Origin: a virus
Taxonomy: Duplodnaviria > Heunggongvirae > Uroviricota > Caudoviricetes
DNA: 33,753 nucleotides
Direction: 5' to 3' (one strand)
Virus record (IMG/VR): IMGVR_UViG_2579778538_000002
In this document: piece after piece, positions 2,516-24,585 of the stretch
How the letters are laid out: every line of letters starts with the position of its first letter
Numbering within the stretch: position 1 is the first letter of the stretch
The notes under the pieces: generated by a model
The model's input: the letters and a program-made list of their open reading frames with translations, nothing else
What the model was told of the DNA's origin: nothing
Databases searched by the model: none
Position numbers and translations under genes: made by a program

Positions 2516-3112
2516 TCAGTGGGAGTGGTGGCTGGAGTTTTCGCCATCAGACAACATACTGCCCGTGGCATGGACATTCCCTTTAATCTCGATATTGCCA
2601 TGGATGGTCGCGGTAACACCTTCACCACCAGAACCCGCCATGCCTCCTTCGTAAATCAGCTTACCCCTGACACGCAGATCTCCGGTAAGTTCGGTTTCCG
2701 GTGCGTCAATCGTGGCTTTCTGTGTTTTCAATACCACATCAGCACCACACTCAATGACAATATGCTCAATGCCGCCCCGGATGATCAGAGTGTGCGTCTT
2801 CCGGTTGTAGCTGTACTCTGCACCATCAGCAAACCGGGTTCCCCGGATATTTTTGTCACTGAACGGTGGTTTATCGACGTCTGAATACACCGCGCCCAGA
2901 ATAACACCATCCTCGCCGTTGGCATCGAGCAGCACCTCAACCTGCTCCCCCACGTCAGGGAGCCAGTAATCTTTGTTATCCTGGGTATTGCGCTGCAGCA
3001 CGTTAAGCCAGTTTGTGCGCAGGTTATCGCATTCAGGCAGACGAACGCGGGCCTGAACCCTGTCGGCATCAACGGCACTGACCGTACCGACCTGACGAGT
3101 GACACCAGTCAT
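2516..3112 (-). CDS. baseplate spike/assembly protein V (P2 gpV / Mu gp45-like)
   Basis: 198 aa; N-terminal OB-fold-like region followed by a Gly-rich C-terminus (GGMAGSGGEG), typical of gpV spikes; follows the gpD-like hub gene. Confidence 0.7.
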   Translation of the reverse strand: MTGVTRQVGTVSAVDADRVQARVRLPECDNLRTNWLNVLQRNTQDNKDYWLPDVGEQVEVLLDANGEDGVILGAVYSDVDKPPFSDKNIRGTRFADGAEYSYNRKTHTLIIRGGIEHIVIECGADVVLKTQKATIDAPETELTGDLRVRGKLIYEGGMAGSGGEGVTATIHGNIEIKGNVHATGSMLSDGENSSHHSH

Positions 3113-4263
3113 TTTTTCTTCTCCTTAATCACCGTCGATGTACTGCCATCCGGGTGATAAACCGTGAGTTTCTGAGTTTTTTGTTTTTTCCCTCTTGTGA
3201 CTGGCCCCCGTGCCACTTCCAGCTCTGTGGTGTAGCCGCTGTTACGGTCAAACGCATGGCGGGCAGTGGTTATGAGCCATGGCCCGGATAACTGCCCAAA
3301 ACTCACCAGTTCAATTTTGTTGCCTGCTGTCAGTTGAGGTGTTCCCGTCAGCGTCAGGGAGCCGTTCTGCTGGTATTCGTTATGTCTGGCCAGTGCTGAA
3401 TCCGCTTTAATCCGGGCACTGTCCGGGTCGCTGACGCGGCTGTTAACTTTAAGTGAGTCAGCGCTGGTAACCTTACCACCTTTGAGCTTTTTGTCGCTTT
3501 CACGGGTACCACCATCAGCTTCGTAGACGATCAGTTTTTTACTGCTGCTTTTCTGGTGTTTTACCTTTGCAGATTTATAGACCCGGTTGATGGTGTCACG
3601 CAGGGAAAAGCGGGCCACATCCTGCGGTTTTAACTGCCTGACCGGCTCCTGACTGCGCAGTGTGGCCAGATGAGAAAAAATCAGCTGGTCACTGACCACT
3701 TTCACTGCATAACCATACTCGCTGGCCAGCCGGCGCAGAAAACCCACGTCGGTTTCAGCATACTGGGTCACCCGGTCGATTCTGATGGACTCAATGCTGC
3801 CCACCAGTTTCAGCCGGTGCTTTCTGGCAATCCGCCCCGCAACAGCTGCCAGCGTGGTGTTCTCAAAACCACGACTGGTTTTAGTCCGCAGGGCACTGTT
3901 AACCGAGGTGGCCACCCCACGGATAGAAACAACGGAAGCGGGCGAACTCACTTCGATCTCGTCTATAGAGAACGTACCGCAGGACAGCAGCTTCTCGCCC
4001 TGATAGCCCATTTTCAGCGTCAGCGTGTCACCCTTGCCCGGATACCATTTATCCAGCCAGCGGCCATCGGTGTCGTCCAGCTCCACCTCAATGGTATCGG
4101 ACTCATTTTTGATGTTATCGCTCCAGGTCACACGGGTGACATAAGGCGCGATATCAGAGGTGATGTTTTTCTGCAGATACCACAGAGTGAACACCGGTGT
4201 CAGCACATCGCTGACGCCGGTTAACGCTGATGTGACTTGCGCAGTGCTGTTTATCTCAGCCAT
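3109..4263 (-). CDS. baseplate hub / late control D-like protein (P2 gpD, Mu gp44-like)
   Basis: 384 aa, size and position as P2 gpD (tape measure - U - X - D order). Confidence 0.7.
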   Translation of the reverse strand: MAEINSTAQVTSALTGVSDVLTPVFTLWYLQKNITSDIAPYVTRVTWSDNIKNESDTIEVELDDTDGRWLDKWYPGKGDTLTLKMGYQGEKLLSCGTFSIDEIEVSSPASVVSIRGVATSVNSALRTKTSRGFENTTLAAVAGRIARKHRLKLVGSIESIRIDRVTQYAETDVGFLRRLASEYGYAVKVVSDQLIFSHLATLRSQEPVRQLKPQDVARFSLRDTINRVYKSAKVKHQKSSSKKLIVYEADGGTRESDKKLKGGKVTSADSLKVNSRVSDPDSARIKADSALARHNEYQQNGSLTLTGTPQLTAGNKIELVSFGQLSGPWLITTARHAFDRNSGYTTELEVARGPVTRGKKQKTQKLTVYHPDGSTSTVIKEKKK

Positions 4264-17679: not shown

Positions 17680-19274
17680 CAGAATCCCTCCAGCATACGG
17701 GCCGCCTGACGACGACGGCGTGAGCTTGCCTTCACCGGCCCTTTGTTAATTTCACGGCTGGCGAAATACGCCAGCGCCAGTGCGATGGCTGAATCCCCGT
17801 GGCGTTTACCACCGTCAGCCTTTGCTTTTGAGCGTTGCTCCGGTACGCGGGGGACACCGTTCACCACCTGAACGGCCCGCAGGTCATCCAGTGTGTCTTC
17901 ATCCTTTGGTAAGTCCACCAGGTTGCCGTCTTCCAGTGCAGCTTTGACCGGAGGCATATGCTCCCGGTACCAGCCTTCGGTTGGCATCACCTGCTGAACC
18001 CGGCCGGAGCCGTAGCGCTGCATGGCGTATTCAGCCAGATAGGCACCATTACCACGGGCATCAAACGCTGCACCCAGCAGACCGGGCAGGCCATCCATCA
18101 GATACCAGGTGATTTGCTCCTGCTGTCTGAACGGCACGTTACGCAGCTCCAGTACGAATGGCACGCGTCGTACCAGGTTCTTCTCCTGCAGCAGGGGATA
18201 GTCCACCGACAAATCACCGCTACGGCCAAAGTCGCGCCCCAGGAAAGAGCGGGCATCAGTGGGGAGTGCCTCCAGCAATGGTTTCAGATACTCATCAAGC
18301 CAGTCCTGCGTCTCGCGGAAGCGAACCTCATCAGACAGCAGTTCATAACCTTCCTTGCAGGTCAGACGCAATACCGGCGTATCAGCGGACATGCGGGACT
18401 CTATCAGGGCACGGGACAGCCAGGCACCGCCACCGTTGGCCGGAATACAGTCAAGCTCTTCGGATGCGCCGGCACCGTAGAATTTGTACACCGATGCCAT
18501 CCAGGCCTGCTCGGATGCCTCCGACCATTCCTTCCCGGTGCGCAGACAGACGCGCCGGAACAGCCCCTCAGATACGGCTTCCCGGAAAGTGATGCGATGT
18601 ATGCTGCCTCCCTGACGTCCGGCACGGATATCCCCGATAAGCGTATTGAACGGATTGTCGTCACCGTCATGGGTGGAGATAACGCGTACCTTTCCCCCCC
18701 AGATAAGCATCGCCAGCGCCGCTTTCAGCAGTTCGTCCAGTTGCTCATGGAACGCCGCTTCGTCGATAACAATAATACCCTGACGGCCACGCAGGTTAGA
18801 CGGGCGGCTGGAGAGCGCAACAATACGAAAGCCGGAGTCAGGAAATTTGATGGTGTAAGTCTTGATGTGTTTGTCGTCGTCGTCCTCTTCCCAGAATCCT
18901 TCTTCAATTTCACTGGCCGCATAGTTGAATGCCCGTGCCCACATCGCACACGCCTGAATGTATTCGACGGTCATGTCCTGGTTATAAGCGATGTAATACA
19001 CATTCATCCCGCCTGCTGGCGCAGAAGAGGCGGCGGTCAGTACGTTATCGGATGCCTCAGCCCATGTAATACCGGTACGACGGCTCTTTTCTATCACCTT
19101 AAGCGGAGAGGTGTCTGCCACCCAGCGCTGCTGGTAAGGCAACAGAACGGGAGGGGCATCCAGCGCCGAGGTATCAGGCAAAACGGGAGCAAGGTTATTC
19201 CTCCCGTCCATGGGACTCATCCCTTCGGGGCCGCCGCCAGCGGCGTTTAAAATCACTCCGGATGATTTTGTCAT
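17679..19274 (-). CDS. terminase large subunit (Mu gp28-like)
   Basis: 531 aa; N-terminal ATPase-like and C-terminal nuclease-like regions; start overlaps small-subunit stop. Confidence 0.8.
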   Translation of the reverse strand: MTKSSGVILNAAGGGPEGMSPMDGRNNLAPVLPDTSALDAPPVLLPYQQRWVADTSPLKVIEKSRRTGITWAEASDNVLTAASSAPAGGMNVYYIAYNQDMTVEYIQACAMWARAFNYAASEIEEGFWEEDDDDKHIKTYTIKFPDSGFRIVALSSRPSNLRGRQGIIVIDEAAFHEQLDELLKAALAMLIWGGKVRVISTHDGDDNPFNTLIGDIRAGRQGGSIHRITFREAVSEGLFRRVCLRTGKEWSEASEQAWMASVYKFYGAGASEELDCIPANGGGAWLSRALIESRMSADTPVLRLTCKEGYELLSDEVRFRETQDWLDEYLKPLLEALPTDARSFLGRDFGRSGDLSVDYPLLQEKNLVRRVPFVLELRNVPFRQQEQITWYLMDGLPGLLGAAFDARGNGAYLAEYAMQRYGSGRVQQVMPTEGWYREHMPPVKAALEDGNLVDLPKDEDTLDDLRAVQVVNGVPRVPEQRSKAKADGGKRHGDSAIALALAYFASREINKGPVKASSRRRRQAARMLEGF

Positions 19275-19816
19275 GTGGCAATCCCCAGAATCTCGCGACG
19301 AAGCGCCTGTACTGCGTCGCTTGACAGTCCCCCCTTACGGGCAATTTTCTCGGCGTTGCTGGCTGCCTGCTGCGCTCTGGCCCGTACTTCAGACTGGAAC
19401 TTTTTGAGGTTGACGGACGCGCGGGACAGCGTAGCCACATTCTTCGCCACCTTCGACAGCAGGGCCACGCGTTCTTTAGGATCGACTTCGCCTTCTTCCG
19501 CCTCCTGCAACTGGACAATACTCTCGAACAGCTCGGTCTGAATAAGGGCTATCACAGCCTCCGAACGCGCATCCTGATCGTCTGCTGCGCCTTCGGTCAG
19601 CATGCGGGCCGCTTCTGTTGCCGCACGGATAGCACCATAGCGGCGCTCAATCTTCTGTCCATAGCGATGGATAGCGGATTTGCTGATGACGTACCCCCGC
19701 TCACGCAACAGTGACTCCAGCTCGTTATACCCGCTGAAGCCGGATTCAGTCAGCGCCCGTTCAAGCCAGCGGCGCACGTCTTCCGGCAGCTTTTCTATTG
19801 TGCTGCGTCTGGCCAT
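19271..19816 (-). CDS. terminase small subunit (Mu gp27-like)
   Basis: 181 aa, immediately upstream of the large terminase gene; N-terminal DNA-binding-like region and helical C-terminus. Confidence 0.6.
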   Translation of the reverse strand: MARRSTIEKLPEDVRRWLERALTESGFSGYNELESLLRERGYVISKSAIHRYGQKIERRYGAIRAATEAARMLTEGAADDQDARSEAVIALIQTELFESIVQLQEAEEGEVDPKERVALLSKVAKNVATLSRASVNLKKFQSEVRARAQQAASNAEKIARKGGLSSDAVQALRREILGIAT

Positions 19817-20127
19817 TATTCACTCCAGTACTTTTCCGGGCGGGCAATACCCGGACCACATTCCACGGTGTATTCCACCAGGTCTACGCCGAGGCGGGTC
19901 AGGTCAGCAAACCAGTCGCCAGAAGGTTTTTTCTCCAGCTCAACCATTTTACGGTCAGCCAGATAATCCAGTTCGCGGCGCAGTTCCAGCGGTGTGGTGT
20001 CCGGGTAGATGGCACGGGACACATCCAGCAGCAGCGTCTCGCTGGCGGTGTAAGGGCGGGTCTTGTTCAGGGCAACCAGCAGACTCCAGCGCAGGGATTC
20101 GCGGCGTACCCGGGTAATATCGACCAT
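19816..20127 (-). CDS. hypothetical protein (Mu gp26-position)
   Basis: 103 aa ORF between lysis cassette and terminase genes; ATGA-type overlap with neighbours. Confidence 0.45.
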   Translation of the reverse strand: MVDITRVRRESLRWSLLVALNKTRPYTASETLLLDVSRAIYPDTTPLELRRELDYLADRKMVELEKKPSGDWFADLTRLGVDLVEYTVECGPGIARPEKYWSE

Positions 20128-20453
20128 TATTGACCTCCGGTATTGCGGTACTGCTGTACCACTTCCAGTTTGTTATAAAGCGCGTCCAGTTTGGCCTCAA
20201 TGACTGTCTGGCCACGGATATAATCCTCTCGACGGACATAATTCAGCGGTAAATCCGCTTTAAATCGCATAAATTCTTTTTCCAGCTCGCCCCAGTTGGA
20301 GGCGGATTGTTGCAGGGCCTGTTCAAGGGAGGCGAATCGTGCCGCCTGGCGTTCTTCTGTTTTACTGAACAACCATTTGGCGAGCCCTCCCACAAACCTC
20401 ATGAAGGTGAGCAGAAAACTCACCACCGTCCAGAATTCAACCTGCAGTGTCAT
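20127..20453 (-). CDS. membrane protein with one N-terminal TMD (Mu gp25 'releasin'-position)
   Basis: 108 aa; hydrophobic stretch FWTVVSFLLTFMRFVGGLAKWLF then helical region; located right after the spanins. Confidence 0.45.
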   Translation of the reverse strand: MTLQVEFWTVVSFLLTFMRFVGGLAKWLFSKTEERQAARFASLEQALQQSASNWGELEKEFMRFKADLPLNYVRREDYIRGQTVIEAKLDALYNKLEVVQQYRNTGGQ

Positions 20454-21100
20454 TTCTGTAATCCTTCCCGTTCATCCAGCAGCGCGTTTATCTGGTTCCG
20501 CCAGCGACGACATTGCCATGCGTTGTCGATGATGTTGGCGAGAACGTCACGCTGGGAGACACCCGAATCGCGTAACCGGGTGTCAGTGGTTTCAGGTTGC
20601 CCGGTCGCTGTGCCAGAGCGGGTGCCAGTGGCGGCAACTGAGTCTGAATGACCGGTGTCGACGGATGCGTTGTCATATCCGAGTGCGGCGTTGTACTGGC
20701 GCACGAAACCGCGAGTAAACACGCACTCAATGGGATGACTCTTACCTTTTTCATCAATCCAGCGCTGTGTGACATCGTTAATTTGCCCCTGTAGTTGTTT
20801 GTTCCGGCTCTCCAGTTGAGCAATCTGCTCAAGATAACCGGCTTCAGCCCGCTGCCCGGCGGCCACCTGCTCCTGATACCGTCTGGCCCAGGCCCGCAGC
20901 GCAGCATTCTCAAGCGTTGCCTGCTCCGTTTTGTACGCGTCAAATGCTGACTGCAACTGACTTAGCGCGGTATCACCGTCACGCTTTGCAGAGTCATGAC
21001 CACTTCTGTATCCCATGGCATACAGGCCGACCAGAAAGGCATTGATAAGAATGGCCAGCAGAATGCCGCGCCACGGCAGCTTTTTAACCAGATGCCACAC
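20450..21100 (-). CDS. i-spanin (Rz-like inner-membrane spanin)
   Basis: Positively charged N-terminus then TMD (LPWRGILLAILINAFLVGLYAMGY), then long helical periplasmic region; an out-of-frame lipoprotein gene is nested inside. Track ORF starts at 21202; GTG near 21100 with GGGGAGG Shine-Dalgarno is the more plausible start. Confidence 0.55.
   Translation of the reverse strand: MWHLVKKLPWRGILLAILINAFLVGLYAMGYRSGHDSAKRDGDTALSQLQSAFDAYKTEQATLENAALRAWARRYQEQVAAGQRAEAGYLEQIAQLESRNKQLQGQINDVTQRWIDEKGKSHPIECVFTRGFVRQYNAALGYDNASVDTGHSDSVAATGTRSGTATGQPETTDTRLRDSGVSQRDVLANIIDNAWQCRRWRNQINALLDEREGLQK
20488..20754 (-). CDS. o-spanin (Rz1-like outer-membrane lipoprotein), nested in the i-spanin gene
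   Basis: Internal Met of track ORF 20488-20943: MKKVRVIPLSACLLAVSCASTTPHSD... has a lipoprotein signal (lipobox AVSC) and a Pro-rich mature part, entirely inside the i-spanin gene in another frame. Confidence 0.6.
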   Translation of the reverse strand: MKKVRVIPLSACLLAVSCASTTPHSDMTTHPSTPVIQTQLPPLAPALAQRPGNLKPLTPGYAIRVSPSVTFSPTSSTTHGNVVAGGTR

Positions 21101-21824
21101 AACTGCTGCCTCCCCATGTGAGATATCGCGGTGCCAGTTCGCGCAGGATGCGCTGCGGATAATGGCGGTTCTCCCGCCAGCTGGCCGCATTGCGTCCGGC
21201 ATTCACCGTGGCGACATGTCCGAACCAGCGGGTGCTGTCCAGACCTTTCTGTGATGCAAGCCGCCTGTCCCGTTGTACCCAGCCCAGACCACCGTTATAG
21301 CCCGACAGTGTCATGGCCATACGCTCGCAGTCACTGGCGGCGCTGACACGCTGCCACAGCCAGCGGTCATAGCTGACCAGCGCCCGGATAGCCCATGCCG
21401 GATTAAACGGCTCACGACTGCTCAGCATCGGTATCAACTGGCTTATCCAGTCGGCAGTGGCAGGCATGAACTGCGCCAGTCCCTGAGCGCCAGCCGGCGA
21501 GATCGCATCAGGTCGCCAGCCGCTTTCCTGATGCAGTTGCGCGGCGAAATCGGCCACCGGCGCAGACAGTCCCCATTCAAGCCGGGCATTACGGATCACA
21601 TCATCGCGATACTGCAGCGCAGCCTGCGGAGGTTGTGCTGCGCATGCCTGGCTGAAAAAGCCGCCACACCAGAGCAACATTGCGACAAAGAATACCCATG
21701 CCATATGAACCAGAAAGGTCCCGGCGCGGACTGACAGGCGTTCGGTTCTGATGAAGACCCGAAAGGCTTCGAAAGCCAGTTTCAGGGACATGCATACAAT
21801 CCAGGTGATCTGCGGCCAGTTCAT
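21084..21824 (-). CDS. endolysin, lytic transglycosylase (SLT domain) with N-terminal hydrophobic signal/SAR-like segment
   Basis: Catalytic-region signature QLHQESGW ... GAQGLAQFMPATA (E-S / GLMQ-type SLT motif); hydrophobic MAWVFFVAMLLWCGGFFSQA before the domain; true start may be an internal Met. Confidence 0.8.
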   Translation of the reverse strand: MNWPQITWIVCMSLKLAFEAFRVFIRTERLSVRAGTFLVHMAWVFFVAMLLWCGGFFSQACAAQPPQAALQYRDDVIRNARLEWGLSAPVADFAAQLHQESGWRPDAISPAGAQGLAQFMPATADWISQLIPMLSSREPFNPAWAIRALVSYDRWLWQRVSAASDCERMAMTLSGYNGGLGWVQRDRRLASQKGLDSTRWFGHVATVNAGRNAASWRENRHYPQRILRELAPRYLTWGGSSCVASG

Positions 21825-21826
21825 GA

Positions 21827-22177
21827 TTAAAGCCCCATCGCAACAGCCAGGCAGACCGCTGCAACAATCAGTGCACGGCGGATTAACGCAGCAGAAAACA
21901 CCAGGTGAAGGCCGGTCTGTACCGGGAAACGCCCTTCAGCCATCAGCCTGTCGTCATGTTTCAGGTACTGACCGGGACGGGCTTTGGGGAAGAGCGAACG
22001 GTCAAGCCAGTAACCCAGCACTGCTGCCAGCGTGATGAGTGCCAGCTTGTAGATCACAACAGGCAGCTGCTGTGGTGAGACCAGAGCGATGGTGCCCAGC
22101 AACAGCACTGAGGTCAGCAGCCAGCCGCTGAGGCGAGGTTTTTTAACAGGGGGAATGAATTTTTTCAGGTTTTTCAT
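21827..22177 (-). CDS. putative holin / small multi-TMD membrane protein
   Basis: Start moved to ATG at 22177 (AAGGAG 7 nt upstream); 116 aa with about three hydrophobic segments; first gene of lysis cassette directly upstream of the endolysin. Confidence 0.5.
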   Translation of the reverse strand: MKNLKKFIPPVKKPRLSGWLLTSVLLLGTIALVSPQQLPVVIYKLALITLAAVLGYWLDRSLFPKARPGQYLKHDDRLMAEGRFPVQTGLHLVFSAALIRRALIVAAVCLAVAMGL

Positions 22178-22307: not shown

Positions 22308-23036
22308 ATGACGCAGACACTGAATCCGGTCATCACTGTCACCGTGTCCGGTCCTGTGGGCAGCGGTAAAAGTTACGTACTGGCGCGAATAGAGGAAGTG
22401 GTGAAACAGGAATTCGGAAACAGCGTCATTGTCGACGCCGCAGACGTGGACGGTGAGCGCCGTATGAGTGGGGATGATCTGAGCACATGGCAGAAACCAC
22501 GGGCTGGCACAGTGATCAGGCTGGAGGAATACACGGGACAGGGCCTGTTGTCATACGGCGAGGAGCGTATCTGTCGGACGAATGAGCTGCTGGATGTTAT
22601 ATGCCCCACGGGCCGGCAACCCTGGATACTGCCCGATGCACTGCATGCCACCATTGCGGCACTGATGACAGTTTACGATCAGGAGCTGCTCATGAAGGAG
22701 TTACGTAAACTCACTGGTCAGTCAACAGAATGTTGTTCGTCCCCGAAGTACGGCAAACAGGAACACATCCCGATTAACCAGCCTCCCCGGTTCTTCGACG
22801 AATACCTTCTGACACCGGAAAATAAAGCTGAGCATGAAGAGATCAAAGCGGCGTTGTTCCGGGAAATCAGGAAGATTGCTGAAATGCAACTGGAGGGCGG
22901 GCTGGACAGAGTGATGGCGAGAGGAGAATGGGCATCGCTGTTTGAAAGAGTTTCCCCGGAATTACTTCCCCTCGCACTGGCTATCGGGATTATGCAGACA
23001 GCGGATAAACCTCACTTACGTTCATTAAACACGTAA
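22308..23036 (+). CDS. P-loop NTPase, kinase-like (Walker A GPVGSGKS at residues 15-22), unknown function
   Basis: 242 aa with strong Shine-Dalgarno (GAGGAG) before ATG; N-terminal strand-P-loop-helix arrangement VITVTVSGPVGSGKSYVLARIEE and candidate Walker B SVIVDAAD; transcribed divergently from the late operon. Confidence 0.6.
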   Translation: MTQTLNPVITVTVSGPVGSGKSYVLARIEEVVKQEFGNSVIVDAADVDGERRMSGDDLSTWQKPRAGTVIRLEEYTGQGLLSYGEERICRTNELLDVICPTGRQPWILPDALHATIAALMTVYDQELLMKELRKLTGQSTECCSSPKYGKQEHIPINQPPRFFDEYLLTPENKAEHEEIKAALFREIRKIAEMQLEGGLDRVMARGEWASLFERVSPELLPLALAIGIMQTADKPHLRSLNT

Positions 23037-23416
23037 CGCATAATCCGGGATACGCATTCAGCGATGACTGCATTTTCACCGGTTTTTACTGCATCCAGAA
23101 GTGACTCTTTAAATGGTACGGGCCGGGGCTGCAGAAAGGTCGGCATGGCATTGAGCAGACAGAGCGTTTTTTCCGTGAGGACGACATCAGCCGCTCCCAC
23201 AGCCAGCAACTGAGAGTAACGAATATAGCTGTTATCCCGAAGCCATATCAGCGTATCAATAAAACACCGGCACTTTTTCTGGTCGTGATCAACCTGGTCC
23301 GGGATATCGAAAAAACCAGAATAAATCAAAACCTGAGGTGCCGGATGCGTGTTCAGTAATCGGCAGAATATTTTGCCGGTGAGTACATAAAAATCATCAT
23401 TTAAGGAGTGCATCAT
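23012..23416 (-). CDS. hypothetical protein (134 aa)
   Basis: ORF convergent with the P-loop gene (25-bp 3' overlap) and head-to-head with the 71-aa gene; AT-richer than the phage core; coding status uncertain. Confidence 0.4.
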   Translation of the reverse strand: MMHSLNDDFYVLTGKIFCRLLNTHPAPQVLIYSGFFDIPDQVDHDQKKCRCFIDTLIWLRDNSYIRYSQLLAVGAADVVLTEKTLCLLNAMPTFLQPRPVPFKESLLDAVKTGENAVIAECVSRIMRYVFNERK

Positions 23417-23630
23417 GAATCCCCGATTAACGTTAACAGAACATCAGCGCCGTGCTGAAGCAGTGAACAATGTTCTGGAAGATATTATCCGGTTATACCG
23501 CGGAGAACTGAGTGTCTGTCGTGCCGCTTTTCATTTTCAGGGAATACAAAAGCAGTTTGATACTTCTGTTTTTGCAGAAGGTATTACTTATGCCCTGGAC
23601 CGGATAAGGTCAGAAAATCGCCCCGGATAA
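23415..23630 (+). CDS. hypothetical protein (71 aa)
   Basis: ATG preceded by AAGGAG with 6-nt spacing; no recognisable motifs. Confidence 0.45.
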   Translation: MNPRLTLTEHQRRAEAVNNVLEDIIRLYRGELSVCRAAFHFQGIQKQFDTSVFAEGITYALDRIRSENRPG

Positions 23631-23820
23631 TCCCTAAACCACATTAACAGAAATCCCGCCATCCCTGCCGCATCATGAAAGAACGACCAGCCCGGCACCC
23701 GAAAGCCGGGCTGGTCATCGCCCCACAGGAATGCGCTGTGAGCCGACCAAGGTTCAGTCAGTCTCGCGAGACCTGACCAGACTGCCATATTTTTTAATAA
23801 TTGTAAAAGGCTTGCAGATT

Positions 23821-24585
23821 ATGAAAATGCAGACATTACCCATCGTGCCGTGGATTGGTGGCAAACGCCGCCTTGCAAAACACATTCTGCCGCTGTTTCC
23901 GGCGCATGAATGTTATGTGGAGCCGTTTTGTGGGGCAGCAGCGCTCTATTTTCTTAAGACACCCGGCAAGATCGAAGTCATCAATGATATCAACGGTGAA
24001 CTGGTGAATCTGTACCGGGTGGTAAAGCATCACCTGGAAGAATTTGTCCGCCAGTTCAAATGGGCGCTGGTCAGCCGTCAGATCTACAAATGGCTGCAGA
24101 TCACCCCGGAAGAAACACTGACGGATATCCAGCGTGCGGCACGGTTCTACTACCTTCAGAAGCAGGCGTTTGGCGGCAAGGTGGCAGAGCACAGCTTCGG
24201 TACCTCCACCACATCCCCGCCACGCTTCAACCTGCTACGTATTGAAGAAGAACTGTCAGCGGCACACCTGCGGCTTTCCAGAACAGTCATAGAACACATG
24301 GACTGGCAACAGTGCATTGAGCGTTATGATCGTCCGCACACGCTGTTCTACTGCGACCCACCGTACCTGGGTACGGAAGGCTATGGTGTGGATTTTCCTG
24401 AAGGGAACTACTCGCGGCTGGCAGAGCTGGCCCGGTGCATCAGAGGAAAAATGATAATTTCGGTGAACGACATCCCGCAGATGCGCGAGGTGTTCACTGG
24501 ACTGAACATACAGACAGTGAATATCAACTACAGTCTGGCGGGTAAACCCACGCCGCGCCGTGAACTGCTAATCTGCAACTTCTGA
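23821..24585 (+). CDS. DNA N6-adenine methyltransferase, Dam-like (D12 class), orphan
   Basis: N-terminal AdoMet-binding region WIGGKRR...YVEPFCGAAALYF and catalytic motif DPPY (FYCDPPYLGTEGYG) as in E. coli Dam; start set at internal ATG 23821 (MKMQTLPIV...). No restriction endonuclease candidate adjacent. Confidence 0.85.
   Translation: MKMQTLPIVPWIGGKRRLAKHILPLFPAHECYVEPFCGAAALYFLKTPGKIEVINDINGELVNLYRVVKHHLEEFVRQFKWALVSRQIYKWLQITPEETLTDIQRAARFYYLQKQAFGGKVAEHSFGTSTTSPPRFNLLRIEEELSAAHLRLSRTVIEHMDWQQCIERYDRPHTLFYCDPPYLGTEGYGVDFPEGNYSRLAELARCIRGKMIISVNDIPQMREVFTGLNIQTVNINYSLAGKPTPRRELLICNF

Follow-up and report, generated by a model that had tools for sequence, protein, structure and literature searches.

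The sequence examined here, IMG/VR record IMGVR_UViG_2579778538_000002 (33,753 nt, Caudoviricetes; its whole length is referred to as the window), carries on its minus strand, at positions 20127-22177, a lysis cassette of five genes packed end to end: a holin gene, an endolysin gene, an i-spanin gene with an o-spanin gene nested in it, and the gene of a small membrane protein, p5. The endolysin gene begins with the codons of a leader of two transmembrane domains (TMDs), which corresponds to a small membrane protein that is widespread in free-standing form, here fused to the enzyme, and which precedes a conserved putative signal-peptidase site. A first-pass annotation, made from the letters of the sequence, had proposed this gene order and all five identities, and Pfam and PHROG matches, hydropathy and coordinates uphold them; the E-values of the hidden Markov model searches and the conservation across genera place the gene calls far beyond chance. 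Elsewhere the window encodes a Mu-type transposase, a MuB-like protein, a repressor and a Dam methylase, and it is therefore regarded as a BcepMu-like transposable prophage. That the region is the late-operon lysis cassette of such a prophage (Bcepmuvirus) of Escherichia coli is nearly certain as far as the identity of the cassette is concerned, and its genes appear to be translationally coupled. The fuller explanation, in which a BcepMu-type cassette works with a self-exported and probably cleaved endolysin, we regard as likely.

The cassette had initially been called Mu-style, which did not stand. Gene for gene it matches gp21-gp27 of BcepMu, in the order gp21 (holin), gp22 (SLT transglycosylase), gp23 (Rz), gp24 (embedded Rz1), gp25, gp26 and gp27 (small terminase, TerS), and the common gene order extends to gp28. 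Identities in tblastn comparisons are 52% for the holin (gp21), 61% for the SLT enzyme, 32% for the i-spanin, 51% for p5 (gp25), 57% for the gp26-like protein p6 and 67% for TerS. In BcepMu, too, the SLT enzyme would be exported, the o-spanin, annotated as Rz1, is embedded in the +1 frame and has the PL.PGYA motif, and gp25, the counterpart of p5, is annotated as an inner-membrane protein. The two cassettes differ in that BcepMu gp22 has a plain 19-aa signal peptide (MRVLIAFVVALLGAAAPVAA|QVP) whereas the window enzyme has a 62-aa leader with two TMDs, and in that the mature part of BcepMu Rz1 has an extra Cys whereas the mature o-spanin of the window has none. Pseudomonas phages B3 (ORF24-28) and JBD67 (gp19-23) have the same holin, SLT, spanin and p5 families. 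[quoted passage not shown]

Phage Mu has no holin, a signal-arrest-release (SAR) muramidase (gp22), overlapped spanin genes (gp23/gp23.1) and the releasin gp25, which defines DUF2730 (PMC9239132). Like the window, it has a late-operon cassette directly upstream of genes of the gp26 and gp27 families, with an exported endolysin, a two-component spanin and then a small single-TMD protein oriented N-out/C-in. The components themselves differ: the window has a holin, which Mu lacks, and an SLT enzyme where Mu has a muramidase whose SAR domain is weakly hydrophobic; the o-spanin gene is embedded rather than overlapped; and p5 belongs to phrog_462, with no detectable similarity to Mu gp25 (DUF2730/phrog_736). 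The only Mu-like part is the synteny downstream.

The endolysin gene (21824..21084, minus strand) encodes 246 aa. Its ATG sits 2 nt past the holin stop (TAATCATG), and the spacing is 2-3 nt in nearly all loci. The catalytic domain, residues 63-246 (21084..21638), matches PF01464 SLT with E=2e-14 (53.8 bits against a cutoff of 21.3), and the protein belongs to phrog_669. Glu100, in the motif QESGW, is invariant and aligns with the catalytic E478 of Slt70 (QES vs RQES478), and Cys166 and Cys242 are invariant as well. When the family profile was searched against the PDB, it matched E. coli Slt70 (1sly) with E=1e-8.

The hydrophobic N-terminus noted in the first-pass annotation is in fact made of two hydrophobic segments. 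Residues 1-62 (MNWPQITWIVCMSLKLAFEAFRVFIRTERLSVRAGTFLVHMAWVFFVAMLLWCGGFFSQACA; 21639..21824) comprise TMD1, a basic loop (RVFIRTERLSVR), TMD2 (..LLWCGGFF) and the sequence SQACA with a predicted cleavage A-C-A|A, and AlphaFold2 (AF2) models helices at residues 3-25 and 30-53 with a predicted local distance difference test score (pLDDT) of 78-88. This plan, M-x-W-P-Q-I, TMD1, basic loop (e.g., KHGEPRNDKYSF), TMD2, ..LLWCGGFFSQAxA|A(Q/E)PP and the catalytic domain, is shared by about 100 protein clusters that span at least ten enterobacterial genera, among them Escherichia, Klebsiella, Salmonella, Pantoea, Pectobacterium, Dickeya, Serratia and Morganella. Of 96 clusters, 89 have Ala at position -3 of the junction and 94 have it at position -1, and position -2 is free (N, R, H, C, D, A, S, Y or Q). 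Such an AxA pattern reads as the signature of a signal-peptidase I site under selection. Since alanines at -3 and -1 with a free -2 follow a basic loop and TMD2, the leader would contain a complete n-h-c signal peptide with an extra TMD ahead of it.

Where does the extra TMD come from? The leader matches phrog_5479, a family of free-standing proteins: residues 1-58 of the window leader match with E=4.5e-4, the KP12-type allele with E=3.5e-15, and free-standing members themselves score 1e-17 to 1e-30. A search with the leader profile yielded 172 protein clusters at E<=0.001, and among the best 120 of these, 92 are free-standing proteins of 52-60 aa (median 55) with the pattern M-G-[WAI]-P-Q-I ... 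HG-x-P-[KR] ... LLW[CW]GGFF, most of which end one or two residues past GGFF. Both arrangements occur in Pseudomonas phages: B3 has the two-TMD module fused to the SLT domain as in the window, with the junction AKA|DEIP, and JBD67 has a 52-aa ORF (MGAPQIIWIM...VWWGGFFG*) between the holin and SLT genes, in a different frame. The endolysin leader is thus a fused copy of a small membrane protein that also exists by itself, and no description of a two-TMD endolysin leader was found in the searched literature, coverage of which was incomplete. The possibility that phrog_5479 is always a lysis-cassette gene was rejected, as copies lie among early or accessory genes in Xanthomonas phage FoX5, Burkholderia phage Mica, BcepB1A and metagenomic contigs. 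FoX5 gp46 (L080 2501-2671; 56 aa) and FoX2 gp47 are phrog_5479 proteins annotated as 'lytic murein transglycosylase'; FoX5 gp46 has no catalytic domain, and the label apparently stems only from similarity to the fused endolysin leaders. A 107-aa metagenomic protein (P0167) consists of two tandem phrog_5479 two-TMD modules.

The same SLT domain is found behind several other signals. It follows a classical signal peptide of 19-23 aa in BcepMu, Ralstonia and Burkholderia, a single long signal in Pectobacterium and Brenneria, a collapsed leader with one TMD that keeps both end motifs in Photorhabdus (MNWRQIIGIVLLWCSGMVSPALA|DELP), and its own lipoprotein signal in JBD67 (MKRLLTLGLLGLLSAC). This interchangeability indicates that the catalytic domain works after Sec export, and mostly also after cleavage. 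The lipoprotein signals of JBD67 gp21 (L012 1570-2199; LLSAC) and of P0099 (LLSGC) are canonical, and such enzymes would be lipid-anchored. Two incomplete loci were also encountered. In Apirhabdus apintestini (L023 1790-2000) a frameshift splits the leader from the SLT domain, and the copy looks as if it were decaying. In a prophage remnant in Salmonella Infantis SARB27 (L009 2093-3315; STM4218-STM4216 in LT2 numbering), holin-like, SLT and p5-like genes adjoin, spanin and terminase genes are missing, and tail genes lie directly next to them.

Conservation of AxA, together with the ordinary and lipoprotein signals that relatives carry on the same catalytic domain, suggests that the endolysin is most likely Sec-exported and cleaved, and not of the SAR type. 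We propose that the precursor enters the inner membrane by means of its own leader, independently of the holin. TMD1 would have its N-terminus outside and the basic loop would be cytoplasmic; TMD2 would act as an internal signal sequence, so that the SLT domain would become periplasmic. It is highly probable that the leader by itself brings the SLT domain to the periplasm without the holin. Signal peptidase I would then most likely cut after Ala60-Cys61-Ala62, freeing a soluble SLT domain of about 184 aa; cleavage at this particular site (ACA|A) is a step towards which we lean. The two-helix hairpin of 62 aa would stay in the membrane, where it would correspond to the free-standing phrog_5479 proteins. 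The Holin_2-3 holin would not be needed as a channel and would be a timer that collapses the membrane potential and so licenses the pre-exported enzyme. After degradation of the murein, the i-spanin/o-spanin complex would disrupt the outer membrane, and p5 would be a membrane-anchored cytoplasmic protein that accompanies the gp26 and TerS genes in Mu-like phages.

Endolysins secreted by Sec with cleavable signal peptides are represented by Lys44 of Oenococcus phage fOg44 and have been predicted for Burkholderia phage KS10 (PMC2628397). The course proposed for the window enzyme resembles the Lys44 type in holin-independent export through an N-terminal signal with a peptidase site and in a holin that is just the trigger. 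It differs in that Lys44-type leaders are single signal peptides, whereas that of the window adds an upstream TMD to form a hairpin homologous to an independent small-protein family.

The last gene of the cassette, that of p5 (20453..20127, minus strand; 108 aa; phrog_462, E=2e-35), overlaps the stop of the i-spanin gene with its start (ATGA). The protein has a short acidic N-terminus, one TMD, then Lys, and an 83-aa helical part; according to the positive-inside rule, it would therefore be oriented N-out, C-in, with the helical part in the cytoplasm. AF2 models helices at residues 7-71 and 75-104 with a pLDDT of 92. The family has 596 representatives at 50% clustering, in which the motif LP..YVRREDYIRGQTVIEAKLDAL is nearly invariant. 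It is labelled 'lipoprotein' in PHROGs and in GenBank/RefSeq, a label that must be wrong since p5 has no Cys. Two proteins of 225 aa each (P0242 and P0337) have the p5 sequence as their C-terminal 85 residues, and may be read-through fusions of i-spanin and p5 or artefacts of a frameshift at the ATGA junction.

The first-pass annotation had placed a single-TMD protein at the position of the Mu gp25 releasin. As for position, this is correct: the next gene, that of p6 (19816..20127, minus strand; 103 aa), lies directly downstream of p5, and p6 and Mu gp26 both belong to phrog_436 (E=7e-42 and 7e-43); TerS (19271..19816, minus strand; PF11985, E=1e-56; phrog_426) belongs to the Mu gp27 family; and p5 is therefore exactly in the gp25 slot. 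BLASTP of p6 against Mu gp26 found nothing, and their membership in one family was accepted on the strong phrog_436 matches. As for homology to the releasin, the claim failed, for p5 is not a DUF2730 protein. BLASTP of p5 against Mu gp25 gave no alignment; a Pfam scan found no PF10805 match in p5 or 72 members of its family, and gave E=2.5e-13 for Mu gp25; hhalign of the p5 profile against the Mu gp25 profile gave a probability of 7.5%, with the TMD as the only match; the PHROGs differ (phrog_462 and phrog_736); and Foldseek of the confident p5 model against BFVD returned no match. The idea of p5 as a gp25 homologue was thus rejected as undetectable by BLASTP, Pfam, hhalign, PHROG and fold search. 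The architecture and the slot are nonetheless those of a releasin, with an N-terminal TMD, a cytoplasmic domain of about 75-85 aa, an endolysin gene upstream and a gp26-family gene downstream, and a lysis-regulating, releasin-like role for p5 is possible by this analogy.

About as likely as the releasin-like role is one in the packaging module. In its full form, this alternative holds that p5 is not a lysis protein at all and goes functionally with the gp26-like protein and TerS at the head of the packaging module, to which we give somewhat less than an even chance. The triad of p5, gp26-like protein and TerS is kept where the holin and endolysin are unrelated (loci L047, L049, L060 and L011) and in the Mu-like phages BalMu-1 and FP_Mushu of Gram-positive hosts; in BalMu-1 the late activator gene comes immediately before it, and no lysis gene adjoins. 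Moreover, the cytoplasmic motif YVRREDYIRGQTVIEAKLD is nearly invariant among 72 diverse members. On the other side, p5 is membrane-anchored, which is unusual for a packaging factor, the Salmonella remnant has p5 next to holin and SLT genes without a terminase, and experiments have shown the Mu protein of this slot to be a lysis factor (PMC9239132). DUF2730 proteins, for their part, are also found with cytoplasmic endolysins, in a similar distribution (Chamblee et al., 2022; PMC9239132).

Several points weigh against the export and cleavage of the endolysin as proposed above. Hydropathy, the positive-inside rule and the (-3,-1) rule are the basis on which leader topology and cleavage were predicted. 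TMD2 has about 23 hydrophobic residues, which exceeds the usual length of cleavable h-regions and could speak for an anchor that stays uncleaved, and TMD1 of the window allele is marginally hydrophobic (K15, E19 and R22; Kyte-Doolittle hydropathy 1.43). The match of this diverged leader to phrog_5479 (E=4.5e-4, given above) is weak. The AF2 model of the catalytic domain is poor (mean pLDDT 65.8, from a shallow alignment of 40 sequences), and given this the domain was compared by the sequence-profile search of the PDB instead of a fold search. Finally, the proposed mechanism leaves unexplained why a freely secreted transglycosylase would be harmless prior to the trigger.

In the main alternative the enzyme is not cleaved: the two-TMD leader would tether it in an inactive form until SAR-like release on depolarisation, possibly with p5 as an analogue of the releasin. 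The long TMD2, with its invariant Gly-Gly (G54, G55), and the occupation of the Mu gp25 slot by p5 would suit such a tether. The Cys ahead of the glycines is usually conserved (83 of 96 clusters). It resembles in this the Cys in the SAR domain of P1 Lyz. SAR endolysins of diverse kinds are released by Mu gp25, and in Mu-like phages of Pseudomonas DUF2730 proteins occur together with SAR transglycosylases (PMC9239132). However, an uncleaved anchor has no need of the AxA with free -2 that is kept in the 96 clusters; homologous catalytic domains function behind short classical signal peptides and lipoprotein signals; and p5 has no detectable homology to gp25. TMD2 does not have the composition of a SAR domain, which is mainly of weakly hydrophobic Gly, Ala, Ser and Thr: it consists of 65% LIVFMW and 30% GASTC, compared with 32% and 50% in the SAR domain of Mu gp22. 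We therefore consider release from an uncleaved tether unlikely. The earlier description of the endolysin as membrane-tethered or SAR-like, set against a strongly hydrophobic two-TMD hairpin and a conserved AxA, is probably wrong.

A bolder possibility, which we think rather improbable, starts from a cleaved endolysin and adds a second product. The gene would encode a two-in-one precursor, giving rise to the soluble transglycosylase and to a stable 62-aa two-helix protein with a lysis function of its own, which may be, for example, that of a holin partner, an antiholin or a timing tether. If this were true, the module would be fused in E. coli, Klebsiella, Salmonella and B3 and separate in JBD67 and many metagenomic phages, phrog_5479 would have its first function, and a new mode of endolysin control in Gram-negative hosts would be at hand.

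It is scarcely credible that the first 40 codons are untranslated and that the true start is Met41 (ATG 21704), which would make MAWVFFVAMLLWCGGFFSQACA a plain signal peptide, for although Met41 is present in the window allele, TMD1 there is only weakly hydrophobic, with its three charged residues, and ATG 21824 is preceded by a weak Shine-Dalgarno (SD) sequence of just GGGG, Met41 is missing in the KP12-type allele and in most of the roughly 100 homologous clusters, has no SD ahead of it and would give a signal without a basic n-region, 40 diverse endolysin sequences all have W3 and Q5 and nearly all have P4, the N-terminal frame is open among relatives with in-frame indels only, and PGAP (the NCBI Prokaryotic Genome Annotation Pipeline) and GenBank call the 246-aa product. 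Together with the conserved spacing to the holin stop, this settles on ATG 21824 the start that had been left ambiguous at first.

The i-spanin gene (21100..20450, minus strand; 216 aa) starts with GTG, shares 17 nt with the end of the endolysin gene and has an SD sequence, GGAGG, 8 nt upstream. Its product matches phrog_1403 (Rz-like spanin) with E=4e-92 and has a TMD at residues 7-33, a helical periplasmic domain and two periplasmic Cys. This start, too, had been ambiguous. Relatives keep the GTG, and several genera have no alternative to it, as their frame closes 6-7 codons upstream and offers no further start codon; therefore the 250-aa ORF that begins at ATG 21202 is not the gene, and it was rejected also on the SD sequence and the full-length profile match in favour of GTG 21100.

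The o-spanin gene (20754..20488, minus strand; 88 aa) lies inside i-spanin codons 116-205 in the +1 frame, spanning 0.54-0.95 of the i-spanin length. It encodes a lipoprotein with the signal MKKVRVIPLSACLLAVSC, the lipobox LLAVSC and a mature part of 15% Pro. Its start Met is conserved (MKK/MKN/MNA...). All genera have (A/S)(S/N)TTP after the second Cys, and a C-terminal motif RP..L.PL.PGYA, in the window PLTPGYA, is common from E. coli to Burkholderia. An alternative lipobox, PLSAC (Cys12), was rejected, as its h-region is too short and it is the second Cys that precedes the conserved (A/S)(S/N)TTP. The first-pass annotation had read a nested out-of-frame lipoprotein gene with the lipobox AVSC and had named loss of a functional lipobox in homologues as what would speak against it. 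The lipobox is kept: in a looser search, reaching down to about 30% i-spanin identity, a +1-frame ORF with a lipobox and Pro-rich sequence is present in 60 of 65 i-spanin-homologue loci, and the nested gene therefore stands. Among the five loci that miss it, one is a regex artefact and two are damaged. Both the position of the o-spanin gene in the i-spanin gene and the distribution of Cys (two in the i-spanin, none in the o-spanin) are common among embedded spanins (PMC6139136), and from their sequences the pair appears to be a two-component spanin of embedded architecture. Neither PhiKM nor the inspected RefSeq records of E. coli annotate the o-spanin. In PhiKM, KP12 and some RefSeq genomes it is the i-spanin that bears the name 'putative lipoprotein'; the true lipoprotein is the o-spanin. 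In Mixta mediterraneensis (L022, ~2847-3173) the o-spanin has Tyr in place of the lipobox Cys, and the p5 homologue is shifted about 2 kb downstream relative to the other loci, so that this copy, like that of Apirhabdus, looks to be decaying.

The holin (22177..21827, minus strand; 116 aa) is assigned by its match to the Holin_2-3 family (PF13272, E=1e-41; 141.8 bits against a cutoff of 27) and by three hydrophobic segments, at about residues 14-36, 35-59 and 88-116, which follow a very basic N-terminus and would be those expected of the family. It matches phrog_1528 over the full length with E=6e-55. The start has an SD sequence, AAGGAG, 7 nt upstream; the longer ORF from GTG 22210 was rejected, since the SD site and the full-length profile match favour the shorter one. 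NCBIfam gave nothing useful for the holin, the spanins or p5.

Upstream of the holin gene, a spacer of 130 nt separates it from a divergent gene (22308-23036, plus strand), which is followed by genes at 23012-23416 (minus strand) and 23415-23630 (plus strand). These three genes, belonging to the families phrog_3787, phrog_2266 and phrog_4490, separate the lysis operon from the gene for the Dam methylase (23731-24585). A scan for sigma-70 promoters found none, and the absence of a sigma-70-like promoter from the 130-nt spacer fits activator-dependent late transcription; terminator-like matches occurred at chance level only. At the other end, the large terminase gene is the next after TerS.

The cassette DNA is 100% identical to that of Escherichia phage PhiKM, which comes from uropathogenic E. 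coli and is classified as Bcepmuvirus, and about 88% identical to the Klebsiella 'KP12' clone and Phi06_2974 B. The lysis region was found in 638 of 5426 complete E. coli genomes (~12%), ST131 included, with 471 of these matches at >=99% identity; a genome has up to three copies, and in one case the region is on a plasmid. Prophages of many Enterobacterales, Burkholderia, Paraburkholderia and Thauera have this cassette as well, and so do Pseudomonas B3-like phages. The KP12 sequence itself (OM835952.1, 'Klebsiella phage KP12 clone KP12_2') is classified under Vequintavirinae, yet the clone, 35 kb long, is a transposable phage of the BcepMu-like kind. It was probably induced from a prophage and co-purified, and would not be part of KP12.

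Cassettes of this kind have been described before. The kind was reportedly described for BcepMu in 2004, and the sequence itself is public and largely annotated. What is new is the leader as a fused copy of a small membrane protein, the firm starts, the unannotated o-spanin and the relation to Mu, in which the same slot is filled by a different family. For a prophage present in about 12% of the complete E. coli genomes, ST131 included, the gain is a better annotation. The occupant of the releasin slot, being non-homologous to the releasin, offers a test of whether 'releasin' belongs to the position or to the DUF2730 family. The short signal peptide, the lipoprotein signal, the collapsed TMD and the two-TMD hairpin make up a natural series of export signals on one catalytic domain, and this series is a comparative system for the question of how secreted endolysins are restrained in Gram-negative cells and also bears on whether holins act just as depolarising triggers.

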